This document shows, one piece after another, positions 3,114-60,918 of a stretch of 64,000 bases of DNA. The stretch is from Escherichia phage vB_Eco_F25. Position 1 is the stretch's first letter. Each line of letters begins with the position of its first letter. A model generated the notes under the pieces. The model ran no database searches. It was not told the DNA's origin and worked only from the letters and a program-made list of their open reading frames with translations. The position numbers and the translations under genes were made by a program. Location: the sequence record OP870144.1, one strand, 5' to 3'.

Positions 3114-3118
3114 AACAA

Positions 3119-3142
3119 AGGGACCGAAAGGTCCCTTTTTAT
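3119..3142. terminator. Bidirectional terminator between gene 24 (+) and rnlB (-)
   Basis: Hairpin AGGGACC-GAAA-GGTCCCT flanked by A-run and T-run, between convergent genes. Confidence 0.7.
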
Positions 3143-4147
3143 TTAGCTCACCAACTCAATCCAAGCCGGACGAAGTACATCTTGTACCATTTTAACTAAT
3201 TCCTTTTTAACCAAAGAAGGATTATCCGCTTGAGTTAGAGTAATACCTTCACGAGAAGTTTCTTCCAAAATATCTTGAACAGTTAATCCCATCACCTTTC
3301 CAAAATCTTTTGGACCAATTTCGCCAATTTTGGAAATAACGTTATTTACTCGGTTCAATGTAACATAACAAGCTAAAATTCCAACCAATTTATTATCAGC
3401 TTCTGACAATTCAACTTTAGCTTTAATAGGCTTATCAGACTTTTTCTTTTCACTAAATTTAGAGTTCTTGCATTTAATCGCTACGCGATTGCCATTAGGC
3501 ATCCAAGAAGGATAGCAAGGTTTCAATACATATCCTTCAGCAGTAAATACTTCGCCTTTTGCTTCGGCATTCCAGACGCATTTATTTGCATCAACTAATC
3601 CAGCATGGTCTACTGTAAAATTATAATCTTGGACGACAGAATCTAAATCATTTGGCAATTTAATAAGCTCTTCAAATTTACCGCGACCTAAAAGTGGAGC
3701 CATTTTAAATTTAAATGTATTACAGAATGATTCCATCATATAATCATCGACATAAGTCACATCACCGCTTTCGGTAGTAACAATAATGTCAAATACATAA
3801 AAATCTTTATCGCCATAATCGACATTCTTCTGAATGCCAGGTCCAGCGAATTCGCCAAAAACTTGATAAGATACAACTGCTGAAGTTTCCATAATATCTT
3901 GTACTGCTTTAATGGAATCAGTGTAATTCTTTAGAATAATTTCATACCCAAAGAAATCTTCAGCAGGAAGAATAGGACCAGTACGTTTAGCACAAGTTGC
4001 TTTATCGCGCTCAATAATCAACGAGAAATTTGTACCATGAATCTTTTCACGAGCTACCCATTCGCCGCCAGTCAATCCTAAACTGTAAAGTTTTTCAATG
4101 AATTTAGAATTGTAATGATTTTCAAGACTGCTATACTTTTTAAACAT
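3143..4147 (-). CDS. rnlB: RNA ligase 2 (Rnl2)
   Basis: 334-aa ORF; N-terminus [43 protein letters not shown] contains the ligase KxHGxN nucleotidyl-transfer motif; T4 position between 24 and hoc. Confidence 0.9.
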
Positions 4148-27977: not shown

Positions 27978-28007
27978 TTCAATTTCCTCATTTATTTTGG
28001 TAGAGCT

Positions 28008-28037
28008 ATAATATCACAACTCTACCGTAAAGTAAAC
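28008..28037 (-). promoter_or_regulatory. Early promoter upstream of the cd.2-position ORF
   Basis: Minus strand GTTTACT-17-TATTAT. Confidence 0.5.

Positions 28038-28707: not shown

Positions 28708-28708
<1 letters not shown>
28511..28708 (-). CDS. Hypothetical protein (T4 cd.5 position)
   Basis: 65-aa ORF from internal ATG that overlaps the pseT stop (TAATG); the track ORF extends to 28738. Confidence 0.45.
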
Positions 28709-29933
<1,225 letters not shown>

Positions 29934-31365: not shown

Positions 31366-32953
<1,588 letters not shown>

Positions 32954-60080: not shown

Positions 60081-60221
60081 TTACCATACTAGTGAATGTA
60101 GTGCCATAATAACATCAGAAATGAAAAGCACGACTTGAATTAATCCGAACATTACTCCATAATATAGTGCTACTAATAAAGTAGCAAGGGCTAATGAATA
60201 GCCCAAGATTTTCTTAATCAT
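60081..60221 (-). CDS. Small hydrophobic membrane peptide (46 aa; T4 52.1 position)
   Basis: Manual translation MIKKILGYSLALATLLVALYYGVMFGLIQVVLFISDVIMALHSLVW; ATG overlaps the stop of the upstream peptide. Confidence 0.45.
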   Translation of the reverse strand: MIKKILGYSLALATLLVALYYGVMFGLIQVVLFISDVIMALHSLVW

Positions 60222-60372
60222 TAGTAGATAACAACACAAATGTTAAATATGCACACATACCCTGAGCTAAAGCTTGCGAAAACACACTGCTGGCATCAAT
60301 ACAGATAGTTAAAACACATGCTACTATCCAACAAATAAATGAAATAACTCCTAATAATTTTGCAATATTCAT
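60214..60372 (-). CDS. Small hydrophobic membrane peptide (52 aa; candidate ac)
   Basis: Manual translation MNIAKLLGVISFICWIVACVLTICIDASSVFSQALAQGMCAYLTFVLLSTND; GAGGAAAAT RBS; sits where T4 ac lies, between stp and gene 52. Confidence 0.5.
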   Translation of the reverse strand: MNIAKLLGVISFICWIVACVLTICIDASSVFSQALAQGMCAYLTFVLLSTND

Positions 60373-60379
60373 ATTTTCC

Positions 60380-60460
60380 TCACTGGCGTCTTCGGACGCC
60401 TTTGGTTTTAAGATTGTTACGATAGAACTGCATCACGTGTTCGTTGTGGAAATTACTCAT
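60380..60460 (-). CDS. stp: Stp peptide (modulator of the host PrrC/EcoprrI system)
   Basis: 26-aa [29 protein letters not shown]; first 22 residues match T4 Stp as I recall it; ATG overlaps the ndd stop. Confidence 0.85.
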
Positions 60461-60918
60461 TAATATGCCTGTAAAACAAATTTAAAGTTATCAGCCAACA
60501 TACGGTTCATTTCTTCAAGTGTTTGATACTCAGAATGATGATTACGAGTAAACGCCAAAGCTAACTGACCTTTTCCAAATCCCGTCGTTAGAGGTTTCAT
60601 CTTAGAAGCAGGCAGATAAAACACTGTGTATGGAACATTGTTATTTGCAATAGTACGCGCAAGTTGAGACCGGCATTGACGAATATGACTTAAAACCGCA
60701 CTGAATCCTTGCTTAGAACGCTGATTACCTACATAAAATCGTGCAGACACACATGGATTACTAAATGGACGACCATCTAATTTACTTACTAAAAAGTAAA
60801 ATCCAGGTTTAGATAAAATATCTTTATGCGGAGTTCCTAAAAACCATTCACCACCCTTGATTGTACCAATAACAGTTGCGCCTGCATTGTTCAGATCAGT
60901 AACAGTCATGTATTTCAT
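60460..60918 (-). CDS. ndd: Ndd nucleoid disruption protein
   Basis: 151-aa protein from ATG 60918 ([26 protein letters not shown]…) with AGGAA RBS; the track ORF is N-terminally extended. Confidence 0.9.

Follow-up and report, generated by a model that had tools for sequence, protein, structure and literature searches.

The Stp peptide of this phage genome ends in an altered C-terminus, and our comparisons support the view that this ending is the product of a loop inversion in a palindromic hairpin contained in the last six codons of the gene. The flipped loop is a new and rare allele of a known gene, generated by a known mutational mechanism. A template switch that inverted the loop in one event, with a near-neutral effect on Stp, is likely to be the best explanation for this allele.

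The window, that is the whole stretch of 64,000 nucleotides analysed here, aligns to T4 over 58 kb with 95.3% identity (4.7% of the aligned sites differ), and its best 7-kb match is phage JLBYU22 (96.4%). Judging from these alignments, its source belongs to the T4-like phages (Tequatrovirus), with about 95-96% identity to T4. The features of the stp locus are listed below.

60380 to 60460, minus strand: stp, 26 codons plus stop, with an ATG start (ORF list)
60385 to 60400: perfect palindromic hairpin with arms GGCGTC (60385-60390) and GACGCC (60395-60400), covering stp codons 21-26
60391 to 60394: inverted 4-nt loop, TTCG on the plus strand and CGAA on the coding strand (alignment, census and mismatch-run scan)
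60460 to 60918, minus strand: ndd (nucleoid disruption), directly upstream of stp, 97% identity to T4 Ndd by tblastn
60214 to 60372, minus strand: ac (acridine resistance), directly downstream of stp, 96% identity to T4 Ac by tblastn

The genes are tightly packed: the stp start and the ndd stop overlap by one base (TAATG), and the Shine-Dalgarno sequence of ac (GAGG), 3 nt past the hairpin, shares bases with the stop codon of stp (TGA). Downstream of ac lie 52.1 and then the topoisomerase gene 52, and the gene layout is that of the T4 record. The position and length of stp also match those of the annotated T4 gene (AF158101.6). With 81 nt, the stp ORF falls under the usual length limits of gene callers and is mostly unannotated even in GenBank. 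T4 Stp (AAD42660.1) is a 26-residue peptide that inhibits the type IC EcoprrI and EcoR124I and activates the PrrC tRNA-Lys anticodon nuclease; the window shares with T4 the ndd-stp-ac-52.1-52 locus and the length of the peptide, and differs at residues 23-24, which are FG in T4 and RR in the window.

A first-pass annotation of this DNA had described a 26-codon Stp ORF at 60380-60460 ending in GVRRRQ, had given the end of T4 Stp as GVFGRQ, and had confined the difference to the loop of the hairpin GGCGTC-TTCG-GACGCC at 60385-60400. The ORF list and the sequence agree with the first statement, the translated stp gene of AF158101.6 ends in GVFGRQ, and not in VRRRQ, which would have refuted the observation, and the alignment to T4 places the difference in the loop. 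On the coding strand, T4 reads GGCGTC TTCG GACGCC and the window GGCGTC CGAA GACGCC: all four loop bases differ, the two loops are exact reverse complements of each other, and both arms are identical. The codons GTC TTC GGA CGC (VFGR) of T4 thereby become GTC CGA AGA CGC (VRRR), which corresponds to F23R and G24R in Stp. The hairpin consists of six pairs, five of them G-C, closed by the 4-nt loop, and its 6-bp arms are the same in the window, in T4 and in phage ECP52 (ON782582). Translated comparison gave the same residues 1-22 as in T4, among them the conserved N-proximal 18 residues reported to be needed for both Stp activities (PMC3014915), and the 4-nt loop is the sole tail difference between the two peptides. 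The four loop bases are also all that separates the stp coding sequence of the window from that of phage G8 or IMG/VR locus L007. The exact reverse complement, the unchanged 6-bp arms and the ancestral state of the loop, which is TTCG (see below), bear out the further proposal of the first-pass annotation that the C-terminus was altered by inversion of the hairpin loop.

To place the allele among known phages, we compared the loop across sequence collections. In a phage collection counted without the window's own phage, the same 39-mer context across the loop carries TTCG in 410 records and CGAA in one, ECP52, which is also the only full-length exact match to the window's Stp among 601 stp-bearing records (tblastn). 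TTCG was found in all five IMG/VR matches with the stp hairpin (nine stp contigs in all) and in all eight true stp matches with the hairpin in the JGI/ENA metagenomes, CGAA thus being seen in 0 of 5 and 0 of 8, respectively. No flipped stp was detected in the GTDB genomes, where the only matches were chance ones in GC-rich Actinobacteria and similar, and the flipped 39-mer, the only form queried there, had no match in the RefSeq complete genomes of Escherichia coli. Exact-word searches of about 430 sequences returned no partial or intermediate loop. More divergent relatives point the same way: Gaprivervirus-type stp has a tail ending in LKLTGVFGRP with TTCG or TTTG loops. The 410:1 census and these outgroups indicate that TTCG is ancestral and CGAA derived and rare.

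The hairpin itself varies among relatives. JK38 and QOTSP have a G-to-T change at stp codon 25, which turns the 3' arm into GACTCC, removes one stem pair and gives a tail ending in GVFGLQ. T2, T6 and NIC06P2 encode a different, 28-aa Stp ending in LKNFGILGFKNS, without the GC hairpin; this T2/T6-type peptide shares with that of the window the N-terminal 18-19 residues and the locus, whereas its tail is unrelated. Neither the GVFGRQ tail nor the hairpin is therefore indispensable to T-even phages. Twenty records with at least 99% identity in a first tblastn had been taken as carriers of the flip; the full set of matches and the 39-mer search left only ECP52, the rest being partial alignments of residues 1-22 to FGLQ-type alleles such as those of JK38 and QOTSP.

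With two carriers, the window and ECP52, the loop could have been flipped once or twice. Over 681 nt with the loop masked, the window is nearest to JK38 and QOTSP (five differences) and ECP52 is nearest to EO1 (two differences), all three relatives having TTCG, while the window and ECP52 are 31 differences apart. Within about 700 nt on either side of stp, ECP52 and EO1 are the same except for an indel of one T and for the four bases of the loop, and over about 3.3 kb they differ at 14 sites, which include all four loop bases. The nearest sites separating the window from ECP52 are at +56 and +96 from the stp start, with the loop between them (+66 to +69), 10 nt from the first and 27 nt from the second. 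The nesting of each flipped allele among TTCG relatives suggests that the flip most likely arose twice, independently, on the window and ECP52 backgrounds. The alternative is a single flip that passed from one lineage to the other in a very small patch of recombination or gene conversion. Recombination is very frequent in T4-type phages, and their genomes are mosaic: identity varies widely along the window, and flank haplotypes are shuffled among records. However, the differences at +56 and +96 mean that a single origin needs a conversion patch shorter than about 40 nt, and no third carrier appears among roughly 600 stp-bearing records; we consider this scenario unlikely.

The ECP52 locus has a further peculiarity. 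Compared with EO1, ECP52 has one T more in a run of Ts towards the 3' end of ndd, some 17 nt before the stp start and 83 nt before the loop. This T puts ndd in frame with stp, and ECP52 is annotated with one 179-aa 'nucleoid disruption protein' that runs through to the stop codon of stp. The stp gene of this only other deposited carrier thus has no annotation of its own and forms the last part of an Ndd fusion ORF. The extra T could be a sequencing error in a homopolymer, or Ndd and Stp could really be fused in this phage; the former possibility somewhat lowers confidence in the ECP52 record.

We then asked how often changes of this type occur along the genome. Alignment of the whole window to T4 yielded 84 runs of at least three adjacent mismatches across 64 kb, two of which sit between perfect inverted repeats of at least 6 bp; both are exact reverse complements, a result that independent substitutions would not give. 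One is the stp loop and the other is the following.

3117 to 3138, loop 3126 to 3129: second loop inversion relative to T4, with 9-bp arms, AAAGGGACC-GAAA-GGTCCCTTT in the window and TTTC as the loop in T4

This second hairpin forms the bidirectional intergenic terminator that separates the convergent genes 24 and rnlB, and its loop is GAAA in 238 deposited phage records and TTTC in 242. On the basis of these comparisons, the inversion of loops or spacers is a class of mutation that recurs in these genomes and is not specific to stp. We also observed that the T4 record AF158101 flags 14 nt at 133300-133313 (L038 29301-29314) as 'inverted complement of previously reported sequence'; this segment is flanked by the 7-bp inverted repeats GGTAGAG...CTCTACC and has the form of a spacer inversion, and the corresponding site of the window (28006-28019) has the current T4 orientation.

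The same data bear on the possibility that the stp loop was changed by four independent substitutions in codons 23-24, selected for a basic tail, with the reverse complement arising by coincidence. Mismatch runs are common in the divergent parts of the window, as the 84 runs illustrate, which is compatible with this possibility without being specific to it. The stp flanks, however, are nearly identical to those of TTCG relatives, and ECP52 and EO1, which differ at 14 of about 3300 sites, differ at four of the four loop bases. Given four changes, the chance of an exact reverse complement is 1/81, and this outcome is seen on two backgrounds, with no intermediates found. Stepwise substitution is effectively excluded by these comparisons, and we give the selected-coincidence scenario a negligible probability.

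Template switching during replication is the mechanism that we infer from the pattern and the literature. The nascent strand would leave its template within one arm and pair with the complementary arm on the other strand; the loop would be copied in the opposite sense, and the nascent strand would switch back within the second arm, a single event changing four bases. Quasi-palindrome template switching is said to have been first shown genetically in T4 rII by Ripley and colleagues. Spacer inversion of this kind is also classically associated with the hairpin-loop inversions of chloroplast genomes. Spacer inversion by template switching has been documented in yeast coding sequences, where it includes recurrent and reversible cases and involves arms longer than 9 bp (PMC8604942), whereas the arms of the stp hairpin are only 6 bp long. 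Inverted loops, typically of 4 nt, have also been described for the hairpins of rRNAs and microRNAs (PMC8794818). The stp change has the properties of such spacer inversions: perfect flanking arms, an exact reverse complement of the same length, and a change restricted to the whole loop. It differs from the yeast, rRNA and microRNA cases in that it lies in a phage genome and in an element that is at once the coding sequence of a peptide tail and a UUCG-tetraloop RNA hairpin.

Since small perfect palindromes are locally ambiguous in orientation, we considered whether the flipped loop could be a sequencing or assembly artefact that occurred in the window source and independently in ECP52, the real stp being of the T4 type in both. 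The T4 record itself documents the 14-nt inverted-complement correction between 7-bp inverted repeats described above, and near stp ECP52 differs from EO1 by the loop and by the additional T, a typical homopolymer error. On the other hand, homopolymer errors do not yield reverse complements, and the palindrome spans 16 nt, far below the length of reads or k-mers, so that unique flanks fix its orientation. The presence of the CGAA allele in two unrelated genomes, together with a second inversion that is a common natural polymorphism, its window allele being carried by 238 deposited genomes and hence no assembly quirk, makes an artefact quite unlikely. We retain a template-switch inversion as the probable origin of the allele.

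As for the consequences for the peptide, the first-pass annotation had suggested that a more basic tail could alter the interaction with PrrC or EcoprrI. A review summarising the work of Penner et al. (1995) places a cluster of stp suppressor mutations at residues 4-14 and describes the 18 N-terminal residues of Stp as almost invariant among relatives and the remainder as polymorphic; according to the same review, removing the last eight codons reduces the activation of PrrC and the inhibition of EcoprrI no more than moderately (PMC3014915). Together with the different tail of T2 and T6, the position of the suppressors and the polymorphism of the tail leave that suggestion unsupported. A strong effect of FG to RR is unlikely because residues 23-24 lie in the reportedly dispensable tail, residues 1-22 are unchanged and the T2/T6 tail is unrelated. 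The functional impact of the two replacements on Stp is thus probably small, and the RR form most likely still inhibits type IC restriction and triggers the PrrC anticodon nuclease. The flip would then be near-neutral for the peptide. This may be too generous, since the contrast between 410:1 at stp and about 1:1 at the 24/rnlB terminator implies that the flipped form could be deleterious.

A different reading is that the inversion is an adaptive, reversible flip-flop in which the FG and RR tails, or the sense and antisense positions of UUCG, would modulate how Stp is recognised by defences that sense it, such as EcoprrI-PrrC. The flip appears to have arisen at least twice, an inverted spacer can in principle revert (PMC8604942), and Stp is both an anti-restriction factor and a trigger of defence, so that its variation could be selected; moreover, a 2025 review states that its mode of action is still unknown (PMC12707154). 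However, the flipped loop occurs in only two of more than 420 genomes, the ECP52 versus EO1 comparison, the only one that allows the age of a flip to be judged, indicates a very recent change, and no clade keeps the flipped form. The Stp tail is reportedly largely dispensable, no invertase or dedicated machinery is involved, and a general mutational process accounts for the pattern. We regard such adaptive switching as extremely unlikely. A related version, in which the stp hairpin is a population flip-flop of both the FG/RR tail and the UUCG strand, and in which the RR form alters a 'guard' sensing of the EcoprrI-PrrC type while keeping anti-restriction, seems to us very unlikely. A rare inversion generated by template switching remains our preferred reading.

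The inversion also changes the RNA. Extra-stable C(UUCG)G tetraloop hairpins are a class first found in T4 mRNA (PMC4371310), and the T4 sense mRNA, of the ancestral type, has such a loop at stp. The ndd-stp-ac mRNA of the window reads C(CGAA)G instead, UUCG being moved to the antisense strand, and so has no sense C(UUCG)G tetraloop at this site. Folding with ViennaRNA gave -11.3 kcal/mol for the window sense strand, -12.9 for the window antisense strand and -12.2 for the T4 sense strand. The predicted loss in the mRNA hairpin is just 0.9 kcal/mol, and a cost at the RNA level is therefore not obviously large. A scan for GC-rich C(UUCG)G hairpins with a stem of at least 6 bp gave ten more in the window, at gene ends or in intergenic regions, their stems being 6-8 bp long. 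In all ten, UUCG is in the sense transcript of the neighbouring genes, a strong orientation bias.

1768, 4712, 8729, 17951, 20121, 24044, 24924, 50210, 54265 and 63052: loop starts of the ten other C(UUCG)G hairpins

Among these GC-rich hairpins of the window, that of stp is the only one with UUCG on the antisense strand. Considering this bias of the ten hairpins, and the contrast between the unidirectional stp site (410:1) and the bidirectional 24/rnlB site (about 1:1), our results suggest mild selection against the flipped orientation at stp, which would act through a cost in the RNA, in the peptide or in both. Alternatively, the flip rate may be lower with 6-bp than with 9-bp arms, an effect that would look like selection in these counts.

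We also examined two other possible signals at the hairpin. A terminator pattern, that is a GC-rich hairpin followed by a U-run, is present on the plus (antisense) strand only (GGCGTCTTCGGACGCC TTTGGTTTTA), while the sense strand of the hairpin has no U-run; record G10400 annotates a predicted terminator there. An antisense intrinsic terminator found no support: the T-run TTTGGTTTTA is merely the complement of Lys-Thr-Lys codons, and according to the T4 annotation no known plus-strand transcription unit enters this early-gene block. The G-U wobble changes in Gaprivervirus arms (GGTGTC..., ...GACGTC) were likewise discarded as evidence of selection on the sense RNA, because every synonymous arm transition in this frame keeps the sense pairing, so that this pattern does not distinguish an RNA constraint from a protein constraint.

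At stp, a hairpin loop has thus been inverted within the coding sequence of a model phage gene, a clean case from nature that is seen on two independent backgrounds and rewrites two residues of a peptide central to a classic system of defence and counter-defence. Inversions of this class are near-absent at stp (1:410) and balanced at the 24/rnlB terminator (about 1:1), which suggests that UUCG hairpins or the tail of the peptide are under a constraint that depends on orientation. The case also cautions that, when phages are compared, adjacent substitutions in a cluster may stem from a single template switch and not from positive selection. No new system or mechanism is involved, and neither the recurrence nor the orientation contrast will surprise specialists.

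Finally, we searched the window for the tRNA-repair functions that counter PrrC. Full-length homologues of three T4 proteins were identified.

28708 to 29613, minus strand: PseT (polynucleotide kinase/phosphatase), 95.7% identity to T4
31366 to 32490, minus strand: RnlA, 98.4% identity to T4
3143 to 4147, minus strand: RnlB, 98.2% identity to T4

By homology, the tRNA-repair counter to PrrC (pseT, rnlA, rnlB) is intact in the window, so that the whole Stp/PrrC/repair axis is present. Weak Stp-like matches, with 54-76% identity over 18-26 residues, were also found in siphovirus-sized genomes of about 45-50 kb from phages of Escherichia, Salmonella and Citrobacter hosts, for example BubbaBully (OR896831) and T145P1 (OZ035765) (phage records H99-H110). 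These matches suggest that Stp-like peptides exist outside the T-even group, and one of them, in a siphovirus-sized genome, is annotated as 'activator of host PrrC lysyl-tRNA endonuclease'.
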